From Vulcanimicrobiota bacterium (GTDB taxonomy: Bacteria > Vulcanimicrobiota > JAJTBE01): a DNA stretch of 64,000 nucleotides. The notes under the pieces were generated by a model. That model made no database searches. It saw only the letters and a program-made list of their open reading frames with translations, and was not told the DNA's origin. Location: positions 1,222 through 65,221 of the forward strand of contig JAIORV010000068.1 in NCBI GenBank assembly GCA_021107945.1, given 5' to 3'. The position numbers and the translations under genes were made by a program. The number at the start of each line of letters is the position of its first letter. Positions within the stretch are counted from its first letter, which is position 1. Below are positions 1,696 through 63,068 of this stretch, piece after piece.

Positions 1696-2321
1696 GGCAT
1701 CTTCCTTGTTTGTTAAATGATTGGACAAAGTTATGAATTAGATGAAATGAAGAATTCAGGAATAATGGAATATGCAGTTTAAAGTTTTATGAAGATGAGG
1801 TCTGGGGAATAATTCTCGCCATGCCCGTCCGAATAATAATCAACGGTTATTTTCGAGTTCTCCCCTGTCTTTACCGTATCATTCTCTCTCAATTCCATCA
1901 TCAATCCCACCTTTACGGGTTTTGTGGGGTTGGATGAGGGGAAAGGGGAAAGGGGAGGTGGGAAACGAGATCTATTATCCGTCATCCATTATCCGAATCC
2001 CTCTGTGGTCTTTGTGGTGAAAAATATACGTACATTATGCACCATTCGTTTATCGGGACGAGGACGTCCCTCCTACAGTTATGAACTCTGCTATCCGAGC
2101 TTTATTGGCTGTTACAGACCATATTCCAACAAATTCATAAATACCCTCCAGGCTTATTCTTGCCCTTGTTTTTTTTATAATCCTACCCTCCAACAGAACG
2201 GGAATAAAAAAATAGGAAGATAGAGTTTTAAAGGATATCGATAGTAAATATAAAATAAACGAGGCCAGTGTAAAAAAAATATATCCCCTTTGAGAACTTT
2301 AATGGGTAAAAGTATATTTGC

Positions 2322-5300
2322 ATGAATAGACATTATTTATTGGAGAGTATGATGTTAAGTAAAGAGATGGTATCAAGCAAAGAGAATTCCACTAATCATA
2401 GTGAACTGGAGCATATCCCCAAAATTCTACATGTCGATGATGATCTAGGCTTTCTGAAGTTATTTTCAAGCATGTTCGGCAAGCAATTTAATATCTCATC
2501 GGTTGCGTCCGGGACTGAAGCTCTTGACATATTAAAAATAGAAGAATTTGACGCTGTTTTAACCGATTATGAGATGCCGGGCATGAACGGATTGGAACTT
2601 TTAAAAGGGATAAAAAAAGAATACTCTGATCTTCCTGTCATTTTTTATACCGGCCAGGGTAATGAAGATGTAGCAAGGGAAGCTTTTGTGAACGGCGTGA
2701 CCGATTATTTCACAAAATACAGCTATTCTCTTGTCCATAATGAGAAACTCAGGAATTCTATTAAAAATGCAATTGAAAAGAAAAAAGTTGGAGATGCCCT
2801 TGCCAGGAGTCAGGAAACGCTGAGGGAAATGTTCGAAAACATGAGCAGTGCCGTGGCAATATATGAAGCCGTTGATGACTGTAACGATTTTATATTTGTT
2901 AATTTCAACAGGACAGGAGAAAAGATAGAAAATGTCCGAAGAGAGGATTTGATCGGGAAAAGACTCAAGGATGTTTTTCCTGCCGTGGAGGAATTCGGAT
3001 TGTTTCCGGTTTTAAAGAGAGTATGGGAAACAGGTGAGCCTGAAAGATTTCCACTTGCTCTATATCAGGATGAAAGGACAGAAGGATGGAGAGATAATTT
3101 CGTATTCAAGCTTTCAACGGGTGAGGTTGTAGCGATATATGATGATGTGACGGAAAAAAAGAACGCGGAGTTTCGAATTAAACATCTTAACAGGGTCTTA
3201 AAAGCAATCAGAAACGTGAACCAGTTAGTTGTAAGAGAAAAAGACAAGGAAAAACTCCTTCAGGGCGTTTGTGACAATCTTATTGAAACAATGGGTTATG
3301 TAAGTGCCTGGATAGCTATTATTGATAAAGAAGGAAGTTTCTTAACGGCAAAAGAAGCGGGAGTCGGAGAAGAATTTGCCAAGTTTTATGAGAGATTGGA
3401 GAAGAATGATTACCCTGAATGCATTAAAATTGCCTGGAGGGAGGTAGGGGTGATTTCATACACGGGGGAAGAAATATTAGATATGGATTGTCCTCTTAAA
3501 GATGTTTATATAGGAAATTCAGGAATGACAACGCGAGTTGAACACTTTGGACGAATTTTTGGATTTTTATCAATTATAGTTCCAAGAAATATCATTATTA
3601 ACGAAGAAGAAAAATCGCTGTTTTACGAAGTTGCGGGTGATATTGCATACGCCCTTGACAGTCTTGAAATTAAAGAGGAAAGGAATGGTCATTGGAAATC
3701 TCTGAAGGAAAAGTCACTACAGTTTATTGAAAGAGGAAAAGAGCTGAATTGTCTTTACAAAATATCCAGATTTATAGAAAAAAAGGATGTTTCAGGTGTT
3801 TCAGTAGATCAGATGCTTCAGGGTATTGTCGGGTTGATACCACCGGGATTTCATCACCCGGAAATCACTGTGGCGAGGTTTGTTGTTAACGGTATAGAGT
3901 TTATGACGAAAGGTTTTGTAAAAACTCCATGGTTGGTCAAATCGGATCTATTTGTCGATGGTAATATAATTGGAGCTTTGGAAGTTTATTACACAGAAAA
4001 GATTTCCGATATTTACGAAGATCCGTTTCTTCCGGAAGAAAAAATGTTAATAAATGCAATAACCGAGAGAATGGGGAGGGTTATAAAACGTAAAAGAACG
4101 GAAAAATTATTAAAGAGAGAGCATGCTGTTTTGAGCAATATCATAGAAACAAGTCCCGCCGGGGTCTCGACGGTGGATAAAGACGGCAATTTTACATTTG
4201 CAAACACAAAGGCGGAAGAAATATTAAAATTGGAGAGAGATGAAATCAACAAAAGAAAGTATAACGATCCGAAATGGCATATTACTGACTTTGAGGGGAA
4301 GTTTTTTCCGGATGTTATGCTGCCTTTCAACATTGTAAAGAGAACCCTGAAGCCTGTTTATAATGTGCACCACGCGATTGAAGCAGAGCATAGTGAAAGA
4401 GTGCTTCTGTCTATTAGCTCCTCTCCCCTTTTTGATGAAAACGGGAATTTTGACGGTATGGTATCAACGATTGAAGATATAACCCAAAAAATTAGAATGG
4501 AGAAAGAGCTATTAAACATGGAGAAGCTTGAATCGATTGGAGTTCTTGCGGGTGGAATCGCACATGATTTCAATAATGTTCTCACTTCAATAATCGGAAA
4601 TATATCACTTGCAAAAATTAACCTCGAACCTGATGAGGAAGCTTTTGAAGCATTGACGGATGCAGAAAAATCATCCGATCAGGCAAGAAAGCTTACAAAG
4701 CAAATATTGACATTCGCAAAAGGCGGAGTACCGGTTAAAAAGACTGTATTTATTGAAGATTTTATCAGGAATACAGTTCAATTCTCCATGAGAGAATCAA
4801 ATGTGGCGGTTGAATTCAACTTTGAAGATGAATTATGGACTGTTGAAATTGATGAAGATCAGATGGCAAGAGCGCTATACAATATAGTAATAAATGCACA
4901 ACAGGCCACTCCCGGCGGTGGAGTAATAAAAGTTAAAGTACAGAATGCTATTCTTAACGAAACTGAAGTCACTACTTTGAAGAAGGGGAAATATGTAAAG
5001 GTATCCGTGCTCGACCAGGGATCGGGCATTCCGGAAAAAAATATCAATAAAGTTTTCGACCCATTTTTCAGTACAAAAGAAATTGGAAGAGGAATGGGAC
5101 TTACAACGGCATACTCGATCATTAAAAAGCATGAAGGCGATATTGTAGTAGATTCAGACGGTAAATCCCGGACGGAAGTTATCTTCTATATTCCGGCATT
5201 ATTAAAGAAAGAAAAGATTAATGTACATACTATTGCTGAGCCAGTTCCCGTTAATGGGAGAATCCTTGTTGTTGATGATGAAAGAATAGTGAGAAAAGTT

Positions 5301-5642
5301 GCCACAAAAATACTTGAAAAGATTGGATACAATGCCGAATCTGCGAAAAACGCGGAGGAAGGGATTGACATGTATCTGGATGCAATGCAAGCCGGGCGAA
5401 AATTTGACATTGTTATTATGGATCTGACAATGCCCGGGGGAATGGACGGCACGGAAGCAACAGGAAAAATATTAGAGATTGATCCGTCTGCGAAAATTAT
5501 TGTCTCAAGTGGATATTCAACTGACCCCATGATGGTGGAATATGGGAATTATGGATTTTGCTCTTTCCTGACAAAACCATATTCTGTTAAAGATATAAAG
5601 GAGACTATCTCCGGAGTTCTGAAAGACGGAGCTGAATCCTGA
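2322..5642 (+). CDS. hybrid sensor histidine kinase / response regulator with PAS and GAF sensory domains (REC-PAS-GAF-PAS-HisKA-HATPase-REC)
   Basis: 1106 aa; N-terminal receiver (ILHVDDD...DAVLTDYEMPGMNG); H-box HDFNNVLTSIIG; HATPase G-boxes (DQGSGIP, GRGMGL); C-terminal receiver (ILVVDDE...DIVIMDLTMPGGMDG); candidate promoter TTGAGA-17-TATATT at ~2250-2290. Confidence 0.85.
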   Translation: MNRHYLLESMMLSKEMVSSKENSTNHSELEHIPKILHVDDDLGFLKLFSSMFGKQFNISSVASGTEALDILKIEEFDAVLTDYEMPGMNGLELLKGIKKEYSDLPVIFYTGQGNEDVAREAFVNGVTDYFTKYSYSLVHNEKLRNSIKNAIEKKKVGDALARSQETLREMFENMSSAVAIYEAVDDCNDFIFVNFNRTGEKIENVRREDLIGKRLKDVFPAVEEFGLFPVLKRVWETGEPERFPLALYQDERTEGWRDNFVFKLSTGEVVAIYDDVTEKKNAEFRIKHLNRVLKAIRNVNQLVVREKDKEKLLQGVCDNLIETMGYVSAWIAIIDKEGSFLTAKEAGVGEEFAKFYERLEKNDYPECIKIAWREVGVISYTGEEILDMDCPLKDVYIGNSGMTTRVEHFGRIFGFLSIIVPRNIIINEEEKSLFYEVAGDIAYALDSLEIKEERNGHWKSLKEKSLQFIERGKELNCLYKISRFIEKKDVSGVSVDQMLQGIVGLIPPGFHHPEITVARFVVNGIEFMTKGFVKTPWLVKSDLFVDGNIIGALEVYYTEKISDIYEDPFLPEEKMLINAITERMGRVIKRKRTEKLLKREHAVLSNIIETSPAGVSTVDKDGNFTFANTKAEEILKLERDEINKRKYNDPKWHITDFEGKFFPDVMLPFNIVKRTLKPVYNVHHAIEAEHSERVLLSISSSPLFDENGNFDGMVSTIEDITQKIRMEKELLNMEKLESIGVLAGGIAHDFNNVLTSIIGNISLAKINLEPDEEAFEALTDAEKSSDQARKLTKQILTFAKGGVPVKKTVFIEDFIRNTVQFSMRESNVAVEFNFEDELWTVEIDEDQMARALYNIVINAQQATPGGGVIKVKVQNAILNETEVTTLKKGKYVKVSVLDQGSGIPEKNINKVFDPFFSTKEIGRGMGLTTAYSIIKKHEGDIVVDSDGKSRTEVIFYIPALLKKEKINVHTIAEPVPVNGRILVVDDERIVRKVATKILEKIGYNAESAKNAEEGIDMYLDAMQAGRKFDIVIMDLTMPGGMDGTEATGKILEIDPSAKIIVSSGYSTDPMMVEYGNYGFCSFLTKPYSVKDIKETISGVLKDGAES

Positions 5643-5643
5643 T

Positions 5644-6423: not shown

Positions 6424-7001
6424 AATTATCCTCCGCATCCCTTGTTTTTCATCTGTTCAGTCAGGGTAGCCGAGGGTAGATATCCCCGGCGCAATTCTAA
6501 TCTAAAGAAATTCAAGATGTATGAATGAATACCTTTTCATAAAAAAGCTGTAATATCCGTTTATCGGGATGGGGACATCCCTCCTTTATGGGAAAGGGGA
6601 AAGGGGAGGTGGGAAAGGGGAGGTGGGAAACGAGATCCATTATCCGTCATCCATTTTCCATTATCCGTTTATCGTTATCCGTTTATCGTTATCCGTTTAT
6701 CGTTATCCGTTTATCGGGACGAGGACGTCCCTCCTACAGCTCCGCTCCCCGCTCCGCATAACCCTCTGTGATCTCTGTGTCTTCTGTGGTGAAAAAACAT
6801 ACATCCTGTAGTATCCGTTTATCGGGATGGGGACATCCCTCCTTTATGGGAAAGGGGAAAGGGGAAAGGGGAGGTGGGAAACGAGAGGCGGGAAGCGGGT
6901 CATCCGTTCTCCCCTTTGTGGTCTTTGCGGTGAAAAAAAATGTTATCAAAGATTAGGTCATGTTAGCACAATTCAACACACCACAGCAACATTACACCTA
7001 T

Positions 7002-9995: not shown

Positions 9996-10718
9996 GCTTG
10001 CCTGCCTGAGCAATAAACTATTCACCGCAAATGTCCCTCCTATAAATTTAGAGGCGGGAGGTGAGAGGCGGGAGGTGAGAAGCGGGGAGCGGGATCTGTT
10101 CTGCACCATCTGCCATCATTCATTTTCTTCGTATCTTCGTGATAAAAAAATCTCTGTGGTCTCTGCGATCTCTGCGGTGAAAAAATACGTACATCCTGCA
10201 CTATCCGTTTATCAGGATGGGGACATCCCTCCTGTATGGGAAAGGGGAGGTGGGAAACGAGATCCATTATCCGTCATCCATTTTCCATTATCCGTTTATC
10301 GGGACGAGGACGTCCCTCCTACAGATTCGGGCTGCATTATCCGTTTTCCGAATTCCTCTGTGGTCTTTGCGGTAAAAAACACGTTGGATGGGGACATCCC
10401 TCCTGCAAACGCGAGAAAGGCCTTCCGAAATGACATTCGCTTACGTCCCAATCATTAAATTGTGAAAAAAATCCTTTAAACGGGAAGGTATTTGTGATGT
10501 TGTAAAGAAAGAAAAAGCGATTTTAATTGCCATAATTTCCAGATGGAACCCAGGATATAAAATTCCCAGGGAAATGGCAAGCGATTTGGGGTATGTATAT
10601 TGAAGGTACGGGCTGAAAAACCATGCCGGCATTGTCGGTTCCTAAATTTTTGGATTATGAGAAGTAGCCGAATCTATATCAAGGGTCAATACCCAAAATT
10701 TCTAATAAGAACCAGGGG

Positions 10719-15763: not shown

Positions 15764-15770
15764 AAATTAA

Positions 15771-15796
15771 ACGCGGAGGACGCAGAGGACGCAGAG
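15771..15796 (+). repeat. 3-unit heptad array (CGCGGAG-GA-CGCAGAG-GA-CGCAGAG) abutting the start codon of the GxxExxY gene
   Basis: Read directly: acgcggaggacgcagaggacgcagagATG. Its inverted partner is at 16190-16226. Confidence 0.8.
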
Positions 15797-16234
15797 ATGA
15801 ATAAGGCGGAGATGATCAATAAAATAACCGGGAAAATTATCGGCGTGGCAATTGATGTTCACAGGGTGCTGGGACCCGGATTGCTGGAGTCTGCTTACGA
15901 AGCCTGTATGGTGTTCGATCTTATAGAAGCCGGTTTGAAGGTGGAACAGCAAAAACCTCTGCCGGTTATCTATAAAAATGAAAAACTTGATTGCGGATAT
16001 AGACTGGATTTACTTGTTGAAGATGAGGTGATTGTCGAAATAAAATCTGTTGAGAAAGTATTACCCATACATAAATCTCAGTTATTATCTTATTTAAGGC
16101 TTTCAGATAAAAAGGTCGGATTATTAATAAATTTCAATGTAATAATCCTTAAAGATGGAATTTCAAGGATAGTAAATAATTTTCAAGACTCTGCGGTCTC
16201 CGCGATCTCCGCGTTGAAAAAAGAAGGTGAATGA
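15797..16234 (+). CDS. GxxExxY-family protein (PD-(D/E)XK nuclease superfamily, PDDEXK_3-like)
   Basis: 145 aa; motif GVAIDVHRVLGPGLLESAYEACM contains G-x-x-E-x-x-Y; downstream D...E.K-like acidic/Lys residues (LLVEDEVIVEIKSVEK); inserted between hdrA and mvhD; its stop overlaps the mvhD ATG (ATGA). Confidence 0.8.
   Translation: MNKAEMINKITGKIIGVAIDVHRVLGPGLLESAYEACMVFDLIEAGLKVEQQKPLPVIYKNEKLDCGYRLDLLVEDEVIVEIKSVEKVLPIHKSQLLSYLRLSDKKVGLLINFNVIILKDGISRIVNNFQDSAVSAISALKKEGE
16190..16226 (+). repeat. 3-unit heptad array in inverted orientation (CTCTGCG-GT-CTCCGCG-AT-CTCCGCG-TTGAAAAAA), inside the last 12 codons of the GxxExxY gene
   Basis: Reverse complement is TTTTTTCAA-CGCGGAG-AT-CGCGGAG-AC-CGCAGAG, matching the 15771-15796 array unit for unit. 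Confidence 0.8.
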
Positions 16235-16671: not shown

Positions 16672-17069
16672 TACTGAAGGGAAGCAAGGTCAAGAGCAAA
16701 CTTACCGAGAAAGTGGAAAAAATCAGCGGGCAGAATATATTTGCCTGTTACCAGTGTGGAAAATGTTCGGCCGGATGCCCCATGATCGACTCTATGGATT
16801 ATATGCCGAATCAAGCGATGAAATTGCTGCAAATGGGAGCAGCGGAAGAGATTATCAATTCGAAAACAATGTGGATGTGCGCCTCGTGCCATACATGCTC
16901 GGTGCGATGCCCCCGCGACATCGATCTCTCCGCTGTTATGGAGGCATTAAGACTTATATATCTCAGAACAAATGTCAACAAAGTGGAGCCTTCGCAGATT
17001 CCCGAGGAAGAGTTGAAGGATCTCCCACAGATTGCACTTGTTTGCAATTTTCGGAAGATGACCAGATAA
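16662..17069 (+). CDS. hdrC: heterodisulfide reductase subunit C-like (2x[4Fe-4S])
   Basis: 135 aa; CYQCGKCSAGCP and CASCHTCSVRCP; GGAGGTG SD; 10-nt overlap with mvhD. Confidence 0.8.
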   Translation: MRIILKGSKVKSKLTEKVEKISGQNIFACYQCGKCSAGCPMIDSMDYMPNQAMKLLQMGAAEEIINSKTMWMCASCHTCSVRCPRDIDLSAVMEALRLIYLRTNVNKVEPSQIPEEELKDLPQIALVCNFRKMTR

Positions 17070-17074
17070 CGGAA

Positions 17075-17165
17075 AATGGATAATGGATAATGGAAGATGG
17101 AACTGTAGGAGGGACGTCCCCGTCCCGATGAACGGATAACGGATAACGGAGGACGGATCCAACCT
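17075..17165 (+). repeat. intercistronic composite repeat (GGATAAYGG units plus reverse-complemented GGGACG palindrome module) between hdrC and hdrB
   Basis: ggaaaatggataatggataatggaagatggaactgtaggagggacgtccccgtcccgatgaacggataacggataacggaggacgg; same family as the elements at 2047-2078, 6706-6740, 18841-18882, 37441-37492 and 62918-62975. Confidence 0.75.
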
Positions 17166-18819: not shown

Positions 18820-18950
18820 AACGGAAGCCAGAGGCCGGATCTGTAGGAGGGACGTCCCCGTCCCGATAATCGGTTATCGGAAATTGCAGCTCAAACCTTT
18901 AGGTTTGCCGCTTCTGCTCTGCGGACTCTGCGTTAAATAAAAAAATCGAA
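18820..18950 (+). repeat. intercistronic composite repeat (palindrome module plus heptads CTCTGCG-GA-CTCTGCG-TTAAATAAAAAAA) between the sdhB-like and sdhA-like genes
   Basis: ctgtaggagggacgtccccgtcccgataatcggttatcgg ... cttctgctctgcggactctgcgttaaataaaaaaa. Confidence 0.75.
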
Positions 18951-20720: not shown

Positions 20721-20743
20721 AGATTTTATTACATTCAACGTAG

Positions 20744-20770
20744 CGCGGGTCTTTAGACCCGCCTTTTTTT
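20744..20770 (+). terminator. rho-independent terminator GCGGGTC-TTTA-GACCCGC-TTTTTTTT
   Basis: Perfect 7-bp GC stem, 4-nt loop, T8 run; lies in the convergent gap between the sdhA-like gene (+) and glyQS (-). Confidence 0.7.
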
Positions 20771-22141: not shown

Positions 22142-22450
22142 ATATTAATACCTCCAAATTTGAATGTTTTATATCTTGATTTATCCGGTTGGATATTGCC
22201 ATAATCTTTACTCTATATGATAAAGTTGTTTTTTTCTTCTTTTTCATATCAAAACCTTTTTTTACCACTCATCATAGGAGAAGTTTCCAGCACCTGTATT
22301 CGTAGAAATGCCACTTATAGAGGTGGGTTAGTCTGCCTTTATTCAAATAAATGCTCTGTGAATTCTGTGGTGAATGGTCGCCATAATTCCTCTTTACAGT
22401 CCATTTTTCTCATAGTCCTCACAATATATACTATAAGTGTTTTCATAAAA

Positions 22451-25175: not shown

Positions 25176-25319
25176 ATTATTAATGACTCCGTGTTCTTCG
25201 TGTCTTCGTGGTAATTATCAGCTATCCGACTTTTGACCTCCATTTTCTGGCCTCCGTAATCCATATTCCTTTATCTTTTTTCCCTATACGTGGTCTTTGC
25301 GATGAATAGACACTTGCCT

Positions 25320-26312: not shown

Positions 26313-26510
26313 TTTTTCACCACGGAGCCACGGAGGGCACGAAGATTTTTTTTACTCCGTGTTCTTCGTGACTTCGTGGTGGATTGCGGAGTACGGAAAT
26401 GTTTTTTCACCACAGAGGACGCAGAGGACACAGAGGACGCAGAGGTTTCCCGGATAATGGAAGATGGAGAACGGATTACGGATCCCACTTCCCACTTCCC
26501 ATTTCCCTAA
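26313..26510. repeat. cluster of three heptad arrays plus a C-rich (G-quadruplex complement) module
   Basis: ttttcaccacggagccacggagggcacgaag / ctccgtgttcttcgtgacttcgtggtgg / ttttttcaccacagaggacgcagaggacacagaggacgcagagg / ggataatggaagatggagaacggattacggatcccacttcccacttcccatttccc. Confidence 0.8.
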
Positions 26511-26602
26511 ATTGATACAGGTAATAATTAGAAAAAGGGGGATTGAGGGCATAGAAAAAGAACAATGTAAAGTTGAAAACATTATTCGCGGGAGATGATT
26601 TT

Positions 26603-27874
26603 ATGAACCGTACAAGGACAATCCTGACATTGCTTGCAGTAGCGATATTTTCTCTTATTGTAATTGGCACATCTTTCAGTGCTCCGGTGATTCAATTCGA
26701 TAACTATGAGCGATCCACATGGGATATAGGAGACATGGAATGTATTGCGGTTGTTGATATGGTGGGGCACAATCCCGGTATCGGCGAAGACGTCTCCGAC
26801 CTGATTGCTGAGAGGATCAAACAGCATAAATTCCTCAGGGTGCTTGATCGAAAAAAGACAAACCAAACTCTTGAATCGGCGGGGATACATATCCACGGGA
26901 TACCCGATATCAGGCAGGCAAAAAGAATATGCGAAGCTCTTAATGTTGACGGTGTGATATACGGCTCAATGGACGGCAATTTCACAACGAGCAGGAGATA
27001 CAGGAGAAATTACCGGTATTATTACAACAACGATGACAACAGGAGGAGAAGGCGCCGGGTCGATTACGAGGTTCCATACATAAACAGATCGGGATTCGCA
27101 AGGTTGAAGCTCTTCCTGTATTCCAGGGATAAAGATAAGATAATCGGAGAGATGGAGAATAAGAAGTCGTTTTCGAAGGATTACGATCTGTATTACGGCG
27201 ATTATTATCAGTCGAATTATCCTTCCGACAGCCGGATGCTGATGGATCTTGTTGATGCTATCGTAAAAAAGGCGGTTTATAAATTTACTCCCCATTTTGT
27301 AAGGCGCAGGAGAGAATTATCCAACAAGAACAATTCCGGCACAAAACTTGCCATGGAGACGAAATGGGAAGAAGCTGTCGTGATATGGAAAAAACAATTA
27401 CAGGAAAACCCCGGGGATTTCACCGCTTTGAAAAACCTCGGAATTTATAACGAGATGGAAGGAAACACAACCAGGGCAATCGATTGTTACATGCGCGCTC
27501 GCAAGATAAAGCCTGGTGACAAAAAACTCGTAATATATTTAGGTCAGGCAAGGAATGCCGATCTCACCGGGAAGCCCTTGAAAGCGATTAAAGTTGCCGA
27601 CGAGAAAAACCTGGTGAAGATAGCGAAAATCGAGAGTAACGAGAGGGTATTTATCCTTGGCGGCGAGGAAAAAGGAATAAAGACCGGAGACGAGTTTCCT
27701 ATCGTCAGAAAGATTCCGGTTTTTAATGATGATGTAATAAAGATCGTGGGACGAGCCTATTGCCGCATCGGCACATTGAAGATAAACAAGGTCTTCGAGG
27801 GCGCAAGCATGGGAACAATTACCGATGTGGCGAAGGATTATAAGATTGAAGTAGGAGATAGCGTGGTTAAGTAG
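26603..27874 (+). CDS. secreted protein with CsgG/LpoB-like N-terminal region, Arg-rich low-complexity segment and a TPR-like segment
   Basis: Start moved from 26573 to 26603 (GGGAG SD); signal/TM TILTLLAVAIFSLIVIGTSFSA; TPR-like WEEAVVIWKKQLQENPGDFTALKNLGIYNEMEGNTTRAIDCYMRARKIKP. Confidence 0.5.
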   Translation: MNRTRTILTLLAVAIFSLIVIGTSFSAPVIQFDNYERSTWDIGDMECIAVVDMVGHNPGIGEDVSDLIAERIKQHKFLRVLDRKKTNQTLESAGIHIHGIPDIRQAKRICEALNVDGVIYGSMDGNFTTSRRYRRNYRYYYNNDDNRRRRRRVDYEVPYINRSGFARLKLFLYSRDKDKIIGEMENKKSFSKDYDLYYGDYYQSNYPSDSRMLMDLVDAIVKKAVYKFTPHFVRRRRELSNKNNSGTKLAMETKWEEAVVIWKKQLQENPGDFTALKNLGIYNEMEGNTTRAIDCYMRARKIKPGDKKLVIYLGQARNADLTGKPLKAIKVADEKNLVKIAKIESNERVFILGGEEKGIKTGDEFPIVRKIPVFNDDVIKIVGRAYCRIGTLKINKVFEGASMGTITDVAKDYKIEVGDSVVK

Positions 27875-27903: not shown

Positions 27904-27974
27904 TTTTTACCACGGAGCCACGGAGTGCACGAAGAATTATAAAAACCTCCGTGTTCTTTGTGACTTCGTGGTGG
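27904..27974. repeat. inverted pair of heptad arrays forming a long imperfect hairpin (ACCACGGAG-CCACGGAG-TGCACGAAG / 13-nt loop / CTCCGTG-TTCTTTGTG-ACTTCGTGG)
   Basis: Read directly; T-run lies 5' of the hairpin, not 3', so it is not a canonical intrinsic terminator. Confidence 0.7.
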
Positions 27975-28032
27975 AGGTCGAATCCCGCTTCCCTTTTCCC
28001 GCTTCCCGTCTCCCCGAAACGGAGGAATAATA

Positions 28033-29865: not shown

Positions 29866-29995
29866 GCGAAGTATAGTTTATTCACCGCAGAGAGCGCAGA
29901 GGACAAGTAGAGAAACAAAAGACACCCATATTTTTGGGTGCCTTTTATTTTTTTGAATGGAAATATATTTTATAGACCCGGATTGGTGATTCAGG

Positions 29996-35424: not shown

Positions 35425-35520
35425 TCAAATTTCCATCTTCCATCTTCCATCTTCTATCTTCTATCTTCCATCTTCTATCTTCTATCTTCTATCTTCTTTC
35501 TTCCATCTTCTATCTTCCCA
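35425..35520. repeat. heptamer microsatellite (ATCTTCY)n, ~13 copies
   Basis: catcttccatcttctatcttctatcttccatcttctatcttctatcttctatcttctttcttccatcttctatcttccc; related to GGAAGATGGA modules in the composite repeats. Confidence 0.85.
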
Positions 35521-37126
35521 CTTTTATCGGTATGTTTATCTCGAATAGCCTGTGAAACGGGAAAGAGATGGGACCGATCCGGATTATTGCTTTCTTTTCA
35601 TATTTATTGCCGGGAATGTTTGCCGTGAACTGAAATACAATTCGCTCTCCCGGCGTTTTACCTATTTCACCGGGATCGAGGGGGATATAGTTTATTTTGC
35701 CGGAGCCCGGAATATTGCTTGCCCCACTTTCCGCTCCGGGTTCTCCTTCTTTTAAAACCCTATATTTAATCCCCAGATCATTTAAATTCTCCATAATTTT
35801 TTTGTTTGTAAGATCAAGAGCTTTTTTCTCTTCGTCAATACTCATCCTGTGATAGCTATATGCAGGTATCCCTGTCTTTCCCGGAAGTTTGAGGTGGATC
35901 CCGTCAAGGTATATAAAGTCCGTTATCATTCTCTCGTATAAAAATGCAATTTTCTCCTTGTTCGCTTTCCTGTCGGGGCAATACAGGGAGGCGCATCCTT
36001 CGCAAAGCGCAGTGCCGAGGGTGTTTGTGCCCATTCCCCAGTTTGCATAACCGGAAAGCCTGTTGAACATTCCTCTTTTGTACAATGCCCTGAAGAATTC
36101 CGCCTGCTGCTTGCGATTCGACAGGTCTCCCACCGTGACAGGCTTTTCTTTTAGCAGATTTTCTATTCTGTCTAAAAAATCATCAATCGATTTTTCCCCT
36201 GACAGGTGATTCACTGCAAGAATAAGGTCGGCTTTTTCAGGTTCATAGACAACATCCGCGCCGATTGAATCGACCATATCCAGAGCGACGGACATTATGG
36301 GGGTTGCACTGTAATGATCAATCTTCATCCTGGATGAGGTTATATCCCGATATTCGATATAGACTTTCAGTCTTTTTTTCCTTTTCTCATTCAGGAACCG
36401 GGTAAAAAGAACCATCGCCGATTCATCAATTCCAAGGCGGATCCTGTCAACATCCGAGATGAGGACTTTTTTTCCGATGCCGGCTCTCTTAATATAATCC
36501 TTCATCTTCACGATTTCCCTGACCTGATTGGATATATCTGTAACATCGTCGCCGGAGACGCTGAGGAAGTCTATGACGCCCTCCTTCACATATTCCAGCA
36601 ACTTCATGTTTGCGGACATATTACGTTGCCTGTGCTGAGCTTCTTTCCGGGGGATGCTTGTGAACACTAGGATTTTGAGTTGAGGGTATTTTTTTCTTAT
36701 TATCTTGATGAGGGCTACTGAGTTTAAAGCCTGCCTCGTTGAAACTGAGCTTTTTCTTGATTCCAGAAGTCCTCCATAGATGAGGGAATCGGCGGATATA
36801 ATCAGTAGCTTACAATCATCGTCAAGGTTGTGTTTGAGCCAGAACCAGACATTCCATTGCTTTTTGAATGCGTCCTCATATTTGCTGATGTTTCCCATAA
36901 TCTCACGGGGAGGCACGACGGGATCCCATCCGCATATTTTCGCGATATATTGAACATATTCATATGTCTGATTTCGGCTGTCCAGTGGGATTATTACAAC
37001 CTTTTTGGAATTGGATTGAGCCGGGAAAGAGGATGTCGTCAGAAATGAAATTAATATGAGTGTGAAAAAGAATATTAAAAAGACACGCTTTGTTCGGAAT
37101 ATTGAATTATTATTTGTTTTATTCAT
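35510..37126 (-). CDS. secreted hypothetical protein (possibly DUF4127-like)
   Basis: Track ORF runs to 37237, but the first 37 codons overlie the three-hairpin repeat element 37172-37300. The internal Met (MNKTNNNSIFRTKRVFLIFFFTLILISFL, signal peptide) is the likely start; no strong SD, so the start is uncertain. Confidence 0.55.
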   Translation of the reverse strand: MNKTNNNSIFRTKRVFLIFFFTLILISFLTTSSFPAQSNSKKVVIIPLDSRNQTYEYVQYIAKICGWDPVVPPREIMGNISKYEDAFKKQWNVWFWLKHNLDDDCKLLIISADSLIYGGLLESRKSSVSTRQALNSVALIKIIRKKYPQLKILVFTSIPRKEAQHRQRNMSANMKLLEYVKEGVIDFLSVSGDDVTDISNQVREIVKMKDYIKRAGIGKKVLISDVDRIRLGIDESAMVLFTRFLNEKRKKRLKVYIEYRDITSSRMKIDHYSATPIMSVALDMVDSIGADVVYEPEKADLILAVNHLSGEKSIDDFLDRIENLLKEKPVTVGDLSNRKQQAEFFRALYKRGMFNRLSGYANWGMGTNTLGTALCEGCASLYCPDRKANKEKIAFLYERMITDFIYLDGIHLKLPGKTGIPAYSYHRMSIDEEKKALDLTNKKIMENLNDLGIKYRVLKEGEPGAESGASNIPGSGKINYIPLDPGEIGKTPGERIVFQFTANIPGNKYEKKAIIRIGPISFPFHRLFEINIPIKVGR

Positions 37127-37357: not shown

Positions 37358-37492
37358 ATCACAGAGGACACAGAGGACACAGAGATATTAATATTTCCCC
37401 CCCGATTATCTTCCGCGAACTCTGCGTTAAAAAAACACTTCCGCCTTCCGTCACCATTATCGGGACGGGGACGTCCCTCCTACAGTTCTGAC
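37358..37492 (+). repeat. composite repeat: heptads (CACAGAG-GA)x3, CTCTGCGTTAAAAAAA, palindrome module ATTATCGGGACGGGGACGTCCCTCCTACAG
   Basis: Read directly. Confidence 0.8.
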
Positions 37493-46149: not shown

Positions 46150-46225
46150 CAGACTATAAAAACCCGCGCCACGTGATGTAGATATAATTATTTTGCGGGT
46201 TTGAAAACCCGCGCTACGTGGTGGG
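46150..46225. promoter_or_regulatory. direct repeat of GAAAACCCGCGCYACGTGRTG (two copies, each containing the CACGTG palindrome) plus a GCGGGTTT-GAAA-ACCCGC hairpin
   Basis: tataaaaacccgcgccacgtgatg ... ttttgcgggtttgaaaacccgcgctacgtggtg; lies between oadB (stop 46247) and the amidohydrolase start (45794). Confidence 0.35.
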
Positions 46226-50134: not shown

Positions 50135-50290
50135 AATCACGGAGGCCGCGGAGGATAACCGGAGGAAAAATATTGATATCTCTGAGGTAGATGGAAGTGG
50201 GAAATGGGAAGTGGGAAATAACTGGGATTTTAAGCTTTTTCGACACCCTCACATCCCGTCTCCCGCCTCTCGCCTCCCGTTTCCCGCTTC
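50135..50290. repeat. composite repeat: heptads ATCACGGAG-GC-CGCGGAG-GATAACCGGAGG and a C-rich complement of the G-tract module
   Basis: gatggaagtgggaaatgggaagtgggaaataactggg ... cccgtctcccgcctctcgcctcccgtttcccgcttctcgtc. Confidence 0.75.
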
Positions 50291-50297
50291 TCGTCTA

Positions 50298-51203: not shown

Positions 51204-51647
51204 TGCTTGCTTCCCCCTGTTCATGAAGAATCCATTAAAAAGGCAATACTTTCAATTTATATTATACCCTTTTCATGCATATTATTTCCCTTCCCACTTC
51301 TGATAAAATCCATTTCCTTTTCTCTATAGCAGGTACCAATTCGCCTGAGCTGTTTTTAAACTATGATGGTAATAAATGAGCGAATCGAAGATGATGCAGG
51401 GGACTAGTTAAAACCACAGAGGACACCCTGAAACAACCCCGCCCTGAAACAAGTTCAGTGTAGGCGGACAGGGTTCAGGGCAGGTACAGAGAATTCTCTG
51501 ATTTATCTCAGTGCTCTCTGTGTTCTCTGTGGTAAAAAAAACATAGGGGCTGAGCAGTATCGACTTTTAAAACACGACCTAATAAAATAAAGAAGAAAAC
51601 TTGTTTTTTAGCAGGAATTCAAACATACGGAAATAATTATCTGAAAC

Positions 51648-53332: not shown

Positions 53333-53426
53333 GAGAGATAACGACTTTTTTTTTACCACGAAGTCACGAAGGACACGTAAAGAAAAAAGAGAGAAGAAAT
53401 TGGAAGATGGAAATCCGTCACTCGTC

Positions 53427-53545: not shown

Positions 53546-53625
53546 ATCCGTCCTCCATTACCCTCTGTGCCTGCGCTGAACTTGTTTCAGTGTCCTCTGT
53601 GGTAAAAATTTTAACGGTGAAAAAG

Positions 53626-56794: not shown

Positions 56795-57282
56795 TTATAA
56801 ATACAAACTTAAAATTCAACATGGGTAGTATTTAATGAAACCTGGAATCAATCCTTCAAAAGCCCAGGTCAGTAGTGTCCTTTGTCCAATCTTTCCGCAA
56901 ACAAAAAGGATACCTTATTTTATCAAGGTCAGCAAACCCAAAACCACTCTTTTACTTGGACAACATTGACTTTTTCTATTTACTTTTCAGATTTAACGCC
57001 CGTATCCTTATGTGTCTTTAATATATTTTTTTTCCTGGGGCTTATCAAAGACGTCTTTCCCAGTTCAGGCCTTTTTTCGTTTACGGCAACATCTTTCTCC
57101 AGATCCGATTTTTCAAAAAATAAATAGAAAAATACAAGGAGACCAAATAGAAAGAGCATGCTAATTAAGAAGAAAAACATTATCACTTTCACCATTTCAC
57201 CCTTCTATTTCTTTTTATACCCATTGTCAGAGGAAATAACCATTTCATGAAAAATTTATTTATATCTATTCAGACCTCCCAC

Positions 57283-57337
57283 AGCAGGAGAGCCTTCCAG
57301 GCTCGATTTTCGTGGCAGGATGCCACTCCTGCAAACA
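57283..57337. ncRNA. structured element, copy 2 (outer stem GCAGGAG/CTCCTGC; hairpins GAGCCT-TCC-AGGCTC and GTGGCA-GGA-TGCCAC)
   Basis: Compensatory changes relative to the copy at 38277-38333 preserve both helices. Confidence 0.45.
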
Positions 57338-57520
57338 ATACCACTAAATTAAGGCAGGAGTGACGCATCTTTAAAGCGGAATGGCATGAGAACATCGATA
57401 AAACCCATAGGGCATCTCACATTGTTATTATAATCCAGCGCCAAAACCCACATCACCCATGTGTTGACTCACTAATTCATGGGCATTGCCTATGGGAGGG
57501 ATTTCCCAACCCCGATAAAT

Positions 57521-57947
57521 TAGTGTCTGTCCCTAATTAACAAAATGGCGTCTGTCCCTGTCCCTATTAGTGAATTAATTAGGGACAGACACCAATTATT
57601 TTCCCCTCCGGATATGCCCACAGGTTTTGGGTAATATGATGTATAATGGGAAAAACCTATCGTTGCAATCCTTGTAATTCTTGTTAATAAAAATAGTGTC
57701 TGTCCCTAATTAACAAAATGGCGTCTGTCCCTGTCCCTATTAGTGAATTAATTAGGGACAGACACCAATTATTTTCCCCTCCGGATATGCCCACAGGTTT
57801 TGGGTAATATGATGTATAATGGGAAAAACCTATCGTCGCAATCCCTGCAATTCTTGTTAACAAAAATAGTGTCTGTCCCTAATTAACAAAATGGTGTCTG
57901 TCCCTGTCCCTGTCCCTGTTAATGAATTTATTAGGGACAGACACCAA
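57521..57947 (+). repeat. 173-bp tandem array, 2.5 units. Each unit has a perfect 18-bp inverted repeat GTGTCTGTCCCTAATTAA ... TTAATTAGGGACAGACAC (34-nt spacer carrying a third half-site) followed by an extended -10 element TGTATAAT
   Basis: Units start at 57521, 57694 and 57867; inter-unit segments ~97% identical; TGnTATAAT at 57640-57647 and 57813-57820. Confidence 0.85.
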
Positions 57948-58133
57948 TAGGGGGAACTGAACATTTACCTTCGAATTGGGTGTAAGATAAATATATGAAA
58001 ATACTTTTTGCAAGGAAGGATAAACGCGTACCTCTTAAAGAATAAAACTGCCTGTTGATTCTGTAAAACATATAATTCTATAATTCGGAAGTATTTAATA
58101 ACACTTTTAAAACCGCACCTGGAGAAAAATGTA

Positions 58134-59301: not shown

Positions 59302-59466
59302 TCCCCGGAAGTATCGTTGAATGCTGAATTTGCAGGGGATATTGTTTTTTTACTCCGCCCGGAATTACCTCTTTTTATATTGAAGGGCATATTCCATTGG
59401 AATAGAACAATAAAAAAGGAATATCTGTTATAGTGTAGTATATACACAAACAATAATTCACAGGGA

Positions 59467-60384: not shown

Positions 60385-60417
60385 TATATTTATTAAAAAA
60401 CACAAGGAGGAATAATA

Positions 60418-61431: not shown

Positions 61432-61538
61432 TTTTCGAGTTGATAAATAAAACGTAACTATTGGACATCTTTGTTTTTCAAAGTAAAGCAAGCTGTTTCC
61501 AATAAGTAATGTCGTTTTTATTGGAATATTAATAAAAC

Positions 61539-61612
61539 CGCAAAGAAGCAAAGAACACAAAGAAAATTATTTTTAAACCTTTGTGGTCTTTGCGGTCTTT
61601 GCGGTAAAAAAA
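61539..61612. repeat. inverted heptad arrays forming a long hairpin (CCGCAAAG-AAGCAAAG-AACACAAAG / 16-nt loop / CTTTGTG-GTCTTTGCG-GTCTTTGCGG-TAAAAAAA)
   Basis: Read directly between gap and pgk. Confidence 0.75.
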
Positions 61613-61661
61613 TGTTATCTGCGGTGAATAGTAATGAGAATTTTAAGGGGAGGTAATAACT

Positions 61662-62864
61662 GTGAACAAAGCTACAGTAAGGGATATTGACGTTAACGGC
61701 AAGAGGGTCCTGATGCGCGTCGATTTCAACGTGCCCGTCAAAAACGGAGTTGTAACCGACGACACAAGGATACAGGCCGCTCTTCCCACGATTAAATATA
61801 TTCTCAATCATAACGCAAAGCTTATTCTCATGTCCCACAGGGGAAGACCCAAGGGAAAGGTGATCCCTGAAATGAATATGGACCCCGTGGCAAAAAGACT
61901 TGAGGAGGTTCTTGGAAAGCCTGTCACAAAGCTCAATGAATGTGTCGGCGAAGAAGTAAAGAAAAAAGTAATGGCTATGAAACCCGGGGATGTTATTTTG
62001 TTGGAGAACACACGGTTTTATCCCGGCGAGAAGAAAAATGACCCGGAATTTGCAAAAAAGCTGGCAAGCCTCGGGGAGGTCTATGTCAATGATGCGTTCG
62101 GCACAGCTCACAGGGCGCATGCCTCAACGGTGGGTGTCACGGAATATATCCCCGTCTGTGTGTCCGGATTCCTCATTGAGAAGGAATTAAAAGAACTGGG
62201 AAAGATGCTCACAAATCCGGAGAAGCCCTTCTATGCAATTCTGGGAGGTGCAAAGGTAAAGGACAAAATCGGCGTGATAGATAATCTGGCAAATATATGC
62301 GACGGAATTCTTATAGGCGGTGGAATGGCGTTTACATTCCTCAAAGCTGAAGGGTATGAAATCGGCAAATCACTCCTGGATCCGAATCTTGATCGTGTAA
62401 AGAAAATAATGAAAACGCTGTCGGAAAAGGGAGTCATTCTCGCATTGCCCGTTGATGTGGTTGTAACAGATGACCCAAAGGGCGAAGGCACATCAAAAAC
62501 AGTTGACGCCGACAAGATACCTGCGGATATGATGGGTGTTGATATCGGTCCGAAAACCATAGAGAAATTTTCCAGTCTGATTTCAATGGCAAAGACAATT
62601 TTCTGGAACGGCCCCATGGGCATATTCGAGGTGAATGAATTTGCAACCGGCACAAAAGCGGTAGCGCAGGCTGTCGCCAAGATGAACGGAGTTTCCGTAA
62701 TAGGCGGAGGGGACTCGGTAGCGGCGGTAAAAGAAGCCGGGCTGTCAGATAAAATGACTCATATCTCAACAGGCGGCGGAGCGTCTCTGGAGTTTATTGA
62801 AGGCAAGGAATTACCAGGCATAGCGGCGCTGACGGATAAGGAGAAATTACCGATAGTGATGTGA
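61662..62864 (+). CDS. pgk: phosphoglycerate kinase
   Basis: 400 aa; GTG start with GGGGAGGT SD; [24 protein letters not shown] motifs. Confidence 0.95.
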
Positions 62865-62871
62865 GAGACTT

Positions 62872-63068
62872 CTTTTCACCACAGAGGCCGCAGAGGTATT
62901 CGGGGAATGGAACCCTGATCTGTAGGAGGGACGTCCTCGTCCCGATAAACGGATACGCAGGACGGATGTTTTATTTCACCGCAGAGATCACTGAAATAAA
63001 TTCAGGGCAGGCTCAGAGCACGGAGTTTTTTGATTTAAATTCTTCGTGTCCTTCTCGTCTTCGTGGTT
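62872..63068. repeat. composite repeat cluster (heptads TTTTCACC-ACAGAGG-CCGCAGAGG; reverse-complemented palindrome module; TTTCACCGCAGAGATCAC; TTCTTCGTG-TCCTTCTCG-TCTTCGTGG)
   Basis: Read directly, in the convergent gap after pgk. Confidence 0.75.

Follow-up and report, generated by a model that had tools for sequence, protein, structure and literature searches.

The 64,000-nt stretch of Vulcanimicrobiota DNA analysed here, referred to as the window, carries an inverted pair of short-repeat arrays (15772-16213) that encloses a gene for a 145-aa PD-(D/E)XK protein of the GxxExxY family. This cassette sits between hdrA and flpD, and comprises the following features:

15764-15796, plus strand: 5′ arm, degenerate cap (aaattaaa) followed by CGCGGAG-ga-CGCAGAG-ga-CGCAGAG
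15797-16234, plus strand: cargo gene, 145-aa GxxExxY protein with a PD-(D/E)XK nuclease fold (PF13366, E=7e-42; TIGR04256, E=5e-44)
16189-16226, minus strand: 3′ arm, CTCTGCG-gt-CTCCGCG-at-CTCCGCG followed by the cap ttgaaaaaag

The 5′ arm runs from 9 bp past the hdrA stop codon to 1 bp before the cargo ATG, and the 3′ end of the cargo gene passes through the 3′ arm to overlap the flpD start codon. A preliminary description of the repeats overlooked the place and nature of this ORF; lying exactly between two arrays, it is the link that explains the repeat family. Its product looks like an active nuclease, as predicted from the invariant residues E31, D71, E81 and K83 and from an AF2 model (pLDDT 83) whose nearest folds are Cas4 SSO0001 and the lambda or alkaline exonucleases. 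Matches to Cas4 profiles are weak.

Four forms of the hdrA-flpD junction occur among the window source and three relatives. In L205 it is a pristine, repeat-free 15 bp; in L204 it spans 132 bp and has no heptads; in L203, whose HdrA is 93% identical, arrays surround 157 bp of non-coding DNA; and in the window they surround the GxxExxY gene. As proposed in the preliminary description, homologous intergenic sites were compared, and the repeats proved absent from L204 and L205 (HdrA ~80% identical), with no arrays in 17 kb and 12 kb of syntenic DNA, respectively.

The repeat family in the window

Arrays were defined as at least two CRCNRAG units at a period of 7-13 nt. The window holds 21, whereas 200 shuffles averaged 0.4 and never exceeded 3. 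Of the 21, 20 are intergenic; the remaining one is the cassette's 3′ arm, into which the GxxExxY ORF extends. The 10.3 kb of intergenic DNA contain 71 single CRCNRAG units, and the 53.7 kb of coding DNA contain 63. A TTYAC/GTRAA cap closes the outer side of most arrays, and the earlier search pattern YTTCACCRCRRAG has 8 exact matches where 0.02 are expected.

The dispersed modular family first described is real, and its motif occurs far outside the window, so that a local duplication fails to account for it. Some details change. Blocks are indeed widespread, although they occupy ~17 of the 30 intergenic gaps of at least 80 bp rather than nearly every gap. The heptad stands, with a measured period of 8-10 nt that corresponds to spacers of 1-3 nt instead of 1-2, and unit position 4 is free, since CRCTGAG and CRCCGAG occur besides the variants originally listed. 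Nearly all of the 25 listed blocks lie where they were placed; the one at 10366-10389 was off by ~10 bp and belongs at 10356-10381. The figure of 2-4 units per block does not extend to 22335-22375, 25289-25306, 51411-51430 and 62972-62990, with one intact unit each.

Units are short and purine-rich, and many sources are metagenome-assembled genomes, as might be expected of chance low-complexity sequence or an assembly artefact. We regard this as virtually impossible: it is already refuted by the shuffle counts and by identical sequence in three independent assemblies, and elements also occur in cultured bacteria, both in complete genomes and on plasmids.

One copy in the window is coding (15764-16226, hdrA/flpD) and ~24 are gene-less, with an array-to-gene ratio of ~25:1. 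The gene-less elements and remnants are:

2001-2025, minus: solo capped array of 2 units at the end of a composite element with a 29-bp palindrome module and GGGAAAG repeats
6764-6797, minus: solo capped array of 3 units, one of them degenerate, at the end of a composite element
6914-6940, minus: solo capped array, 2 units
10152-10186, minus: solo capped array, 3 units
10356-10381, minus: solo capped array, 2 units
18917-18945, minus: solo array, CTCTGCG twice and cap, 47 bp upstream of an sdhA-like gene; the L203 orthologue has CTCCGCG twice
22384-22402, minus: degenerate remnant, one intact unit and ctgtggtgaa
25187-25214, minus: solo array, 3 units, CACGAAG/CACGGAG type
25289-25306, minus: single weak unit that may be a chance match or a remnant
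26313-26383, unstranded: complete hairpin, TTTTTCAC-(CACGGAG, CACGGAG, CACGAAG)-10-nt loop-(CTCCGTG, CTTCGTG, CTTCGTG)-GTGG
26405-26446, plus: solo capped array, 4 units, CACAGAG/CGCAGAG alternating, period 9; then GGATAAT-type heptads
27904-27976, unstranded: complete hairpin, 37 bp past the stop codon of gene 26573-27874
29881-29907, plus: solo capped array, 2 units, 21 bp past a stop codon
35348-35382, plus: solo capped array, 2 intact units flanking a degenerate one; then a heptad array of TTCTATC x12
37358-37448, unstranded: asymmetric pair, 3 forward CACAGAG, ~45 nt, one reverse unit and cap; weak fold
50135-50160, plus: solo array, 2 units
51411-51540, unstranded: degenerate pair, 1 forward unit, ~80 nt with a CTGAAACAAGTTCAG module, 3 reverse units and cap
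53346-53378, plus: solo capped array, 2 units, 25 bp past a stop codon
53563-53608, minus: a CTGAACTTGTTTCAG module between two reverse units, and cap
61539-61612, unstranded: complete hairpin, CGCAAAG/CACAAAG type, between gap and pgk
62872-62897, plus: solo capped array, 2 units, 16 bp past the pgk stop codon
62972-63068, unstranded: degenerate pair, cap and 1 unit, internal module, 2 reverse units

RNA helix or recognition motifs

On either strand, the three complete hairpins have strong predicted folds (-29 to -40 kcal/mol; z -5.6 to -8.7); for 26313-26383 the values are -39.5 and -34.1 kcal/mol (z -8.7 and -7.3). With a T-run 5′ and an A-run 3′ on both strands, the elements are not intrinsic terminators, as originally noted. 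The accompanying claim that paired arms keep complementarity is correct for the fixed positions and for positions 2 and 5, and mostly fails for spacers and position 4 (complementary spacers 151/344, position 4 166/256; 87 in-register hairpins). Further, wobble-type mismatches lack strand bias, with G:U and A:C at 61 vs 60 in cassettes, relative to the cargo coding strand, and 114 vs 101 in hairpins. Together, these features argue for repeated recognition motifs in inverted orientation, and not for a selected RNA helix.

Elements lie inside host transcription units, usually beginning a few bases past the host stop codon; of 200 cases with the cap side facing a gene end, 94 have the first unit no more than 20 bp from the stop codon of a long ORF. 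In a Brocadia cassette, the cargo TGA stop is inside the cap and the ATG of the next gene follows 3 nt after it. Such placement, the strong folds, the transitions at positions 2 and 5 that match between arms, and a Shine-Dalgarno-like purine arm would suit a host-useful RNA, whether an mRNA stabiliser, an RNase III site or a translational-coupling module, as in E. coli REP, with the GxxExxY cassette merely a user. We consider this improbable, given the uncompensated spacers and position 4 and the unbiased wobbles. Moreover, roughly half the copies exist as solo arms, which are unable to form the hairpin, the elements are missing from orthologous junctions of relatives, and no Rfam family matches.

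Of the roles first suggested, an RNA-stability hairpin is therefore not upheld, and REP/BIME membership is rejected, the unit being non-palindromic and both a GTAG head and a RAYT gene absent. The evidence favours the remaining suggestion, that these are protein-binding elements or substrates of a mobilising enzyme, although binding is something we infer.

Arrays and GxxExxY genes across bacteria

In a scan of species genomes, the matches listed include copies in more than 10 phyla, among them Chloroflexota, Acidobacteriota, Planctomycetota, Pseudomonadota, Bacteroidota, Verrucomicrobiota and Nitrospirota. Most of these matches show extra units or an inverted partner beyond what the search pattern demanded. 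The GxxExxY family itself forms 29,705 clusters at 50% identity (E≤0.001), and the cassette architecture recurs in cultured Bacteroides finegoldii, Bernardetia and Gemmatirosa, and in Ca. Brocadia. The preliminary description did not recognise the repeat family, and we likewise found no prior account of it in Rfam or the searchable literature.

Arrays were sought within 200 bp of the gene in the best 80 of 592 metagenomic GxxExxY loci. Forward arrays lie at most 200 bp upstream in 59 of 74 cases, reverse arrays downstream in 59 of 74 (~80% each), and arrays on both sides in 46 of 68 (68%), against a background elsewhere in these loci of 0.05 arrays per equal-sized window (~5%). Wrong-orientation arrays appeared just 14 and 11 times. 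Among ~55 small ORFs between inverted arrays, 44 are GxxExxY and no second family recurs. Interiors have a bimodal length distribution (10-150 bp and 350-500 bp); GxxExxY is encoded by 49 of the 58 longer interiors, and its remnants persist in two shorter ones. No GxxExxY ORF was found in 99 array-bearing viral-collection loci.

A motif and cap conserved across phyla with free spacers are typical of repeated protein sites, and the arrays might bind a host protein conserved in all these phyla, for example a nucleoid-associated or RNA-binding factor, making the GxxExxY link secondary. Little probability attaches to this idea: distribution is patchy, relatives with ~80% identical HdrA lack arrays over 12-17 kb of syntenic DNA, GxxExxY is the only recurrent neighbour, and no candidate factor emerged.

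Within an element the two arms correlate in type, with r=0.93 for unit position 2 and r=0.87 for position 5. Position-2 type (CAC vs CGC) does not track GxxExxY similarity (mean identity 0.573 vs 0.571, p=0.37), which indicates that gene and arms do not simply travel together. Each exact GxxExxY protein looked up had one genomic context only, and several Brocadia-like lineages are fixed for a cusB-cusA cassette, a pattern that points to ancient insertions inherited vertically and not to recent movement. No target-site duplication is visible.

These observations bear on a rival reading, in which the capped arrays are an independent REP-like family spreading by other means and the nuclease explains filled sites only. 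GxxExxY would then be a free-standing gene resembling those of homing endonucleases, cutting gene-less palindromes and being copied into their centre with the arms as homology. Small PD-(D/E)XK homing endonucleases do exist, I-Ssp6803I being one. The failure of arm type to track protein phylogeny is in keeping with this proposal, as are the exact fit of the gene between the arms, the bimodal interiors, the single site found with arrays around either non-coding DNA or the gene, and the excess of arrays over genes, including the gene-free viral-collection loci. Yet it offers no reason for cap and motif to have persisted in more than 10 phyla if they lack a conserved partner. Beside the arrays, GxxExxY is the only recurrent enzyme gene, and exact gene copies are not seen at several sites. 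We view it as possible, though rather unlikely.

Relationship to known systems and a proposed mechanism

Like REP/REPIN sequences with their RAYTs (Y1), these are high-copy extragenic repeats whose inverted doublets can form hairpins, and non-coding copies far outnumber the one protein gene flanked by inverted repeats. However, REP units are palindromes with a GTAG head and are species-specific, whereas tandem 7-nt motifs, separated by spacers and closed by a TTYAC cap, are common to many phyla here, and a PD-(D/E)XK nuclease (PF13366) replaces the IS200/IS605-type Y1 transposase. Eukaryotic foldback transposons (Drosophila FB) share long inverted ends of short tandem repeats, with most copies near-empty and a minority holding coding DNA, but are much larger and use a different transposase; the present element totals 70-500 bp, with a 125-145-aa nuclease as cargo. 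In 23S rRNA intervening sequences with an ORF (Leptospira, Coxiella type), a small promoterless ORF also lies inside inverted repeats within a host transcript whose function stays intact, and distribution is patchy and horizontally spread. Those sequences are located in rRNA helices, have an RNase III site as stem and encode a four-helix-bundle protein (PF05635), whereas ours lie between protein genes, encode PF13366 and have arms without RNA-type compensation.

I-Ssp6803I resembles the cargo as a small nuclease of the same superfamily, present or absent at one site with pseudo-palindromic surroundings. Unlike that system, ours involves no intron or intein, and the putative target, where cleavage is only predicted, is itself a dispersed repeat. 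Cyanobacterial STRR repeats are likewise intergenic tandem units of ~7 nt in either orientation, but are uninterrupted exact heptamers lacking a cap, inverted partner or associated gene, and occur only in heterocystous cyanobacteria.

We favour, at a probability of about one half, a foldback/REPIN-like selfish element whose terminal arrays are the observed blocks and whose coding form carries the GxxExxY nuclease. Its structure, distribution, link with the gene, polymorphic insertion and lack of an RNA-type signature are directly observed, and its mode of spread is proposed on indirect grounds. Each end consists of 2-4 copies of C-R-C-N-R-A-G every 8-10 nt, closed on the outer side by a TT(C/T)AC cap, with the two ends inverted. 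The coding form holds one promoterless gene, that of a small Cas4/RecB-like PD-(D/E)XK nuclease (the GxxExxY protein of PF13366), and the far commoner gene-less forms are hairpins with a short loop, single ends, or ends joined to other short-repeat modules. Counting against this reading are the one context of each protein looked up and the fixed cusB-cusA cassette, the arm type that does not track protein similarity, the excess of arrays over genes with the gene-free viral-collection loci, and the lack of a visible target-site duplication; further, a 125-aa nuclease alone is not, to our knowledge, a known transposase.

Apparently, this is a small, undescribed element present across many bacterial phyla. 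Judging from examples, the purine-rich 5′ arm may provide a Shine-Dalgarno-like GGAGGA right before the cargo ATG, and the cargo ORF would end in or just past the 3′ cap, beside the next host start codon. Consequently, the cargo would be expressed by translational coupling, with the operon left unbroken. The repeated motifs may be recognised by a protein, with the GxxExxY nuclease as the likeliest candidate. If the arrays, or the DNA between them, were cut and then repaired with another copy as template, arrays would multiply and become more uniform and the gene would pass from one pair to another, and gene-less copies would rely on a nuclease encoded elsewhere in the genome, as REPINs do on RAYT.

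Capped arrays in the window and across bacteria

The repeats are real. The regular expression offered in the preliminary description, YTTCACCRCRRAG, matches 8 times in the window where 0.02 matches are expected, and clustering of strict units yields 21 arrays of 2-4 units apiece. With position 4 of the unit freed (CRCNRAG), the window again has 21 arrays, whereas 200 shuffles averaged 0.4 and never exceeded 3. Arrays lie outside genes (20/21 are intergenic), and single units are ~6 times denser in intergenic than in coding DNA. A cap, TT(C/T)AC, directly precedes the first unit. Tandem Repeats Finder gives clean arrays a period of 9, so the 'heptad' is a 7-nt motif with a 1-3-nt spacer. The 25 block positions reported beforehand are almost all correct, although one was off by 10 bp (its true position is 10356-10381) and four contain a single intact unit. 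The statement that blocks occupy nearly every intergenic gap went too far, as they are found in only ~17 of the 30 gaps of at least 80 bp.

The window has three full hairpins, a structure proposed beforehand from the sequence, at 26313-26383, 27904-27976 and 61539-61612. Whichever strand is folded, their energies run from -29 to -40 kcal/mol and their z-scores from -5.6 to -8.7. The arrays have a T-run on their 5' side and an A-run on their 3' side on both strands, which rules out intrinsic terminators, as had been argued. The surrounding DNA is ordinary chromosome (G+C 42.6%) with housekeeping content that includes por, hdrA, flpD, an sdhA-like gene, gap, pgk, whiA, a GH57 enzyme and sensor kinases, among others. 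No tRNA, rRNA or transposase was found in the window, and the identical sequence is carried by three independent assemblies. One protein of the window matches exactly an NCBI entry labelled 'Candidatus Eremiobacteraeota bacterium'.

The motif also occurs far outside the window. In a scan of one genome per species, TTTCACCRCRRAGRMCRCRRAG was present in at least 119 loci, where ~17 chance matches are estimated from the information in the pattern, assuming equal base frequencies. The matches listed come from Chloroflexota, Acidobacteriota, Planctomycetota, several proteobacterial classes, Bacteroidota, Verrucomicrobiota, Nitrospirota, Binatia and others, and their cultured carriers include Bacteroides finegoldii, Pedobacter, Ravibacter, Shewanella and Botrimarina. 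Most of these listed matches go beyond TTTCACCRCRRAGRMCRCRRAG, with one or two further units (the third or fourth) and, very often, a partner array in inverse orientation, which lies 10-60 nt away and ends in GGTGAAA. The loci contain at least 83 short hairpins. Further, TTTCACCRCRRAGRMCRCRRAG is found in 99 loci of a viral-contig collection, a number to be read cautiously since the collection includes prophage predictions.

In this genome several other repeat modules occur beside the arrays. Tandem repeats of period 7 and period 14 adjoin the interior side of the arrays, among them GGATAAT/GGAAGAT, GGGAAAG/GGGGAGGT, TTATCCGTTTATCG (four copies) and TTCTATC (12 copies); ATCCATT repeats are also present. 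Composite elements at ~1930-2080, 6590-6830 and 10230-10400 carry tandem-repeat modules in similar order. A 29-bp module, which takes part in this arrangement and contains the small palindrome GGGACG-n4-CGTCCC, often sits on the interior side of a capped array. A variant of it is present in two relatives of the window (loci L203 and L204); the compact junctions of a third (L205) are without these modules, and L204 has a partial ctgtaggagggg-like stretch.

Short repeats accompanying the arrays in the window
Short tandem repeats, period 7 or 14: 6590-6716, 6847-6894, 10050-10086, 10262-10297, 17065-17158, 26483-26507, 27983-28014, 35431-35528, 50193-50293
29-bp module CTGTAGGAGGGACGTCCYCGTCCCGATAA, 7 copies (0 expected): 2050-2078, 6711-6739, 10296-10324, 17103-17131, 18841-18869, 37457-37485, 62920-62948

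The mini-palindrome CTGAAAYAARTTCAG lies inside three degenerate heptad pairs (51440-51470, 53575-53592 and 62990-63010), where it may replace the innermost unit or be a variant of it (CACTGAG-like). A small hairpin with a GTAG head, GTAGCGCGGGTYTTYARACCCG, has two copies in the window (20740-20761 and 46196-46217) and others in L203 near 13000 and 14950; its resemblance to a classical REP unit is closer than that of the heptad arrays. Two longer repeats are also present. The largest intergenic gap (56795-58133) holds a 173-bp tandem repeat of 2.5 copies, 94% identical, at 57517-57948. This repeat, which has no relation to the heptad family, contains in every copy an inverted repeat of TAATTAGGGACAGACAC and CTGTCC runs. 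A 33/66-bp tandem repeat at 30003-30278 (8.5 copies, ~81-85% identical) falls within ORF 29996-31384 of the periplasmic-binding-protein family, where it presumably encodes repeats in one terminal part of the product.

The GxxExxY gene between inverted arrays

One pair of inverted arrays in the window, between hdrA and flpD, encloses a gene.

Features of the cassette between hdrA and flpD
15772-15796, forward strand: forward array, CGCGGAG-CGCAGAG-CGCAGAG
15797-16234: 145-aa ORF between the inverted arrays, PF13366 (PDDEXK_3) at E=7e-42 and TIGR04256 ('GxxExxY protein') at E=5e-44
16189-16213, reverse strand: reverse array, CTCTGCG-CTCCGCG-CTCCGCG

The ORF scores 142.8 bits against the Pfam profile (cut-off 22) and 149.3 bits against the NCBIfam profile (cut-off 35), and its product is identical to an NCBI protein named GxxExxY protein. 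Among candidate metagenome stretches, 592 of 600 encode a relative, and the best 80 of these 592 were used to measure the association with arrays. Where the flank in this set was long enough, a forward array stood no more than 200 bp upstream of the gene in 59 of 74 loci, and a reverse array no more than 200 bp downstream, likewise in 59 of 74; 46 of 68 loci had arrays on both sides. Arrays in the wrong orientation number 14 and 11, and the background elsewhere in the same loci is 0.05 arrays per equal-sized window. The upstream array of the metagenome loci typically ends ~20 bp before the protein match; the 3' array begins ~8 bp past it, often overlapping the end of the ORF. Some GxxExxY genes are flanked by different, related units, namely CTTTCGTG, CAGGGAG/GTCTCACC and CTTGGCG (loci L032 at ~3560-3600, L153 and L201). 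The motif grammar is thus wider than CRCNRAG, and the association counts are consequently lower bounds.

Across all loci, 44 of the ~55 small ORFs lying between inverted arrays encode GxxExxY, and no other recurrent cargo was found there, the four-helix-bundle '23S IVS protein' and transposases having been looked for. The lengths of element interiors are bimodal, at 10-150 bp and 350-500 bp. The gene is encoded in 49 of the 58 interiors in the longer class, and two shorter interiors keep a remnant of it. The architecture is found in the cultured species Bacteroides finegoldii, where radA is followed by an array, GxxExxY, a second array and the gene for an FAD-dependent protein, and also in Bernardetia and Gemmatirosa. 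Public annotation of such loci names the protein and not the repeats. In Ca. Brocadia and related Planctomycetes (loci L308-L323), several lineages have, as a fixed feature of an RND efflux operon, a capped-array GxxExxY cassette separating cusB from cusA.

The protein itself appears to be a nuclease. Forty homologues keep E31 (of the GxxExxY motif), D71, E81, K83, Q95 and Y99; D71, E81 and K83 are invariant in the 40 sequences and form the D...ExK signature of PD-(D/E)XK nucleases. An AlphaFold (AF2) model with pLDDT 83 has as its closest structural matches an alkaline exonuclease, Cas4 SSO0001 and lambda exonuclease (E ~1e-3, TM ~0.4), and defence-system profiles give only weak Cas4 matches. 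Neither single-sequence nor profile searches returned a solved structure. The conserved core and the predicted fold together mark the protein as a putative PD-(D/E)XK nuclease, a class defined by a D...(D/E)xK core on an alpha-beta-beta-beta-alpha-beta fold. Its family is large: grouping at 50% identity gives 29,705 clusters for E<=0.001 and 12,724 for E<=1e-10. PF13366 is listed in a single survey, which enters the function as 'Unknown' and records multiple transfers between divisions. Many of the top representatives (P0241-P0249 and others) are ~270-295 aa long and contain the domain in two full copies. These two-domain proteins suggest tandem cassettes read through as one ORF, possibly with a linker encoded by the array.

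Arrays and cargo fit closely into host operons. Of the 200 cases in which the cap side points at the end of a long ORF, 94 have the first unit no more than 20 bp from the stop codon. The distance from stop codon to first unit has a broad peak at 5-14 nt, so that the cap begins 0-8 nt past the stop. Window arrays at 15772, 27911, 29886, 53357 and 62880 come 9-37 bp after stop codons. The cargo ATG is preceded at ~9-14 nt by GAGGA or AGAGGA, supplied by the purine arm, both in the window and in Brocadia. The cargo TGA stop in Brocadia lies inside the cap GGTGAA, and the next host gene, cusA, starts 3 nt past that TGA; in RIFOXYD2-type loci the cusA start is 11 nt after the cargo stop, and in the window the cargo ORF continues into an overlap with the start of flpD. 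These examples from the window and Brocadia suggest that the cargo would be promoterless and translated by coupling to the upstream host gene, in an arrangement that would preserve coupling to the downstream one.

Insertion polymorphism, and proposed recognition and spread

Three relatives share the por-hdrA-flpD-...-sdhA operon in synteny with the window, and their hdrA-flpD junctions differ.

The hdrA-flpD junction in the window and three relatives
L205 (HdrA 80% identical to the window): gap of 15 bp, repeat-free
L204 (HdrA 81% identical to the window): gap of 132 bp, no heptads
L203 (HdrA 93% identical to the window): gap of 224 bp, 157 bp of non-coding DNA between capped arrays
Window: gap of 467 bp, GxxExxY gene within capped arrays

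The remaining operon junctions are compact in L204 and L205, and swollen by short-repeat modules in L203 and the window. Homologous intergenic sites without arrays, which the preliminary description had proposed looking for, therefore exist: L204 and L205 have 0 arrays in 17 and 12 kb, against 4 in 20 kb in L203. Decay of the gene within the L203 element was considered, and its 157-bp interior has no detectable similarity to GxxExxY. No target-site duplication is visible at hdrA-flpD, where the empty and filled sites are too diverged for base-by-base alignment. A solo array 5' of sdhA reads CTCTGCG twice in the window (18917-18932) and CTCCGCG twice at the orthologous position in L203 (15005-15020). 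The one substitution common to both units suggests, from sequence alone, that whole arrays are converted or rewritten.

The strong hairpins may act in RNA, as stabilisers or processing sites, and the preliminary description offered an RNA-stability role as one reading, beside protein binding and mobilisation by an enzyme. The sequence statistics do not point that way. The arms were said to keep complementarity, and overall they do (~82-84% in 54 cassettes and ~140 short hairpins); in 87 hairpins of exact register, however, only 166 of 256 comparisons at position 4 and 151 of 344 in the spacers are complementary. Were a helix under selection in RNA, changes in the spacers and at position 4 would be expected to be compensated, and G:U to prevail on the transcribed strand. 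The data show neither, with G:U and A:C mismatches at 61 versus 60 relative to the cargo coding strand and 114 versus 101 in hairpins, and we consequently demote the helix. Rfam likewise returned no match in the window at the gathering score, and two weak unrelated ones at E<=1.

Motif type does agree between arms, with r=0.93 at position 2 (A or G) and r=0.87 at position 5, which partly tracks host G+C (r=0.52). Since the signs of an RNA helix are absent, the arms look like one repeated recognition motif in opposite orientations, with complementarity as a by-product. Such a pattern favours a protein that recognises the units one by one. It has parallels in some transposons with multi-site ends and in eukaryotic foldback elements, whose inverted ends consist of tandem repeats.

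The evidence best fits a selfish element of foldback or REPIN-like kind whose coding form carries the GxxExxY nuclease, the blocks first noticed in the window being its far commoner non-coding forms. Under this model, the nuclease would recognise the arrays, and cutting followed by repair from other copies would spread and homogenise them. Two expectations were tried and rejected: the arm type at position 2 shows no relation to protein similarity, contrary to what co-evolution would predict, and the exact proteins P0133 and P0140 each occur in one genomic context, which does not indicate recent transposition. Together with the fixed cusB-cusA cassette, the excess of arrays over genes (~25:1 in the window), viral-collection loci that have arrays and no GxxExxY gene, and the lack of a visible target duplication, these results speak against simple transposition of a gene plus its ends. 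They fit the main rival, in which the gene 'homes' into gene-less palindromes that were already there. Presence or absence of a nuclease gene at one site, as at hdrA-flpD, is one trait of homing endonuclease genes; cutting of the empty site by the nuclease would be the other.

Returning to the selfish-element reading in its full form, we speculate that arrays and GxxExxY constitute an unrecognised, pan-bacterial class of minimal selfish elements of ~0.07-0.5 kb. A Cas4-like PD-(D/E)XK nuclease of ~125 aa would read repeated 7-nt motifs, and would copy itself and thousands of gene-less array pairs while leaving host operons intact. This is a tentative proposal, to which we assign a probability of roughly 0.4.

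Known systems and significance

The arrays share with REP/BIME and REPIN-RAYT elements an extragenic location, high copy number and inverted doublets. However, the units of those systems are imperfect palindromes of 20-40 bp with a GT[AG]G head, whereas the arrays consist of non-palindromic tandem 7-mers with a TT(C/T)AC cap. REPINs flank the gene for a Y1 transposase (RAYT), whereas the arrays flank PF13366, and no RAYT domain was found in the window ORFs scanned. The REP/BIME assignment first suggested is thus not upheld. MITEs have terminal inverted repeats together with a target-site duplication; here the ends are inverted, and at the diverged hdrA-flpD site no direct duplication is visible. 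A MITE with a parent IS (known transposase, same ends) was rejected, PF13366 being the sole recurrent cargo. The IVS cassette of 23S rRNA (rRNA helix, PF05635 ORF) was set aside as well, given that the window has no rRNA and the ORF is PF13366. Type III toxin-antitoxin loci (ToxIN-like) have tandem repeats of ~34-36 nt upstream of an endoribonuclease gene, with a terminator in between; here, units are 8-10 nt, inverted, and on both sides, and there is no terminator between array and gene.

The repeat family appears to be undescribed, as first supposed: the literature searched, which covered few subscription journals or database family descriptions, yielded no published account. Nor did we find a paper linking GxxExxY, PDDEXK_3, TIGR04256 or PF13366 to flanking repeats, although an earlier remark elsewhere is possible. 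Dispersed inverted repeats with an associated enzyme gene are known in kind; this family differs in its enzyme, its repeat grammar and its unusually wide host range.

Arrays are common in MAGs of many phyla, where they yield spurious small ORFs and may break assemblies, and recognising them would consequently improve annotation. The link between PF13366 and the motif hints at the role of the family. It also offers a direct experimental handle, in the binding or cutting of arrays, that can be used in cultured carriers such as Bacteroides finegoldii. If the nuclease reads a tandem 7-nt code with free spacers, it could attract interest as a sequence-directed nuclease. The 'polite' insertion, after a host stop codon and with the cargo end beside the next start, would exemplify a selfish gene living within essential operons. 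If the proposal is true, it would represent a REPIN/RAYT-like system built on a different enzyme, and would provide a function for ~30,000 protein clusters now listed as 'unknown'.
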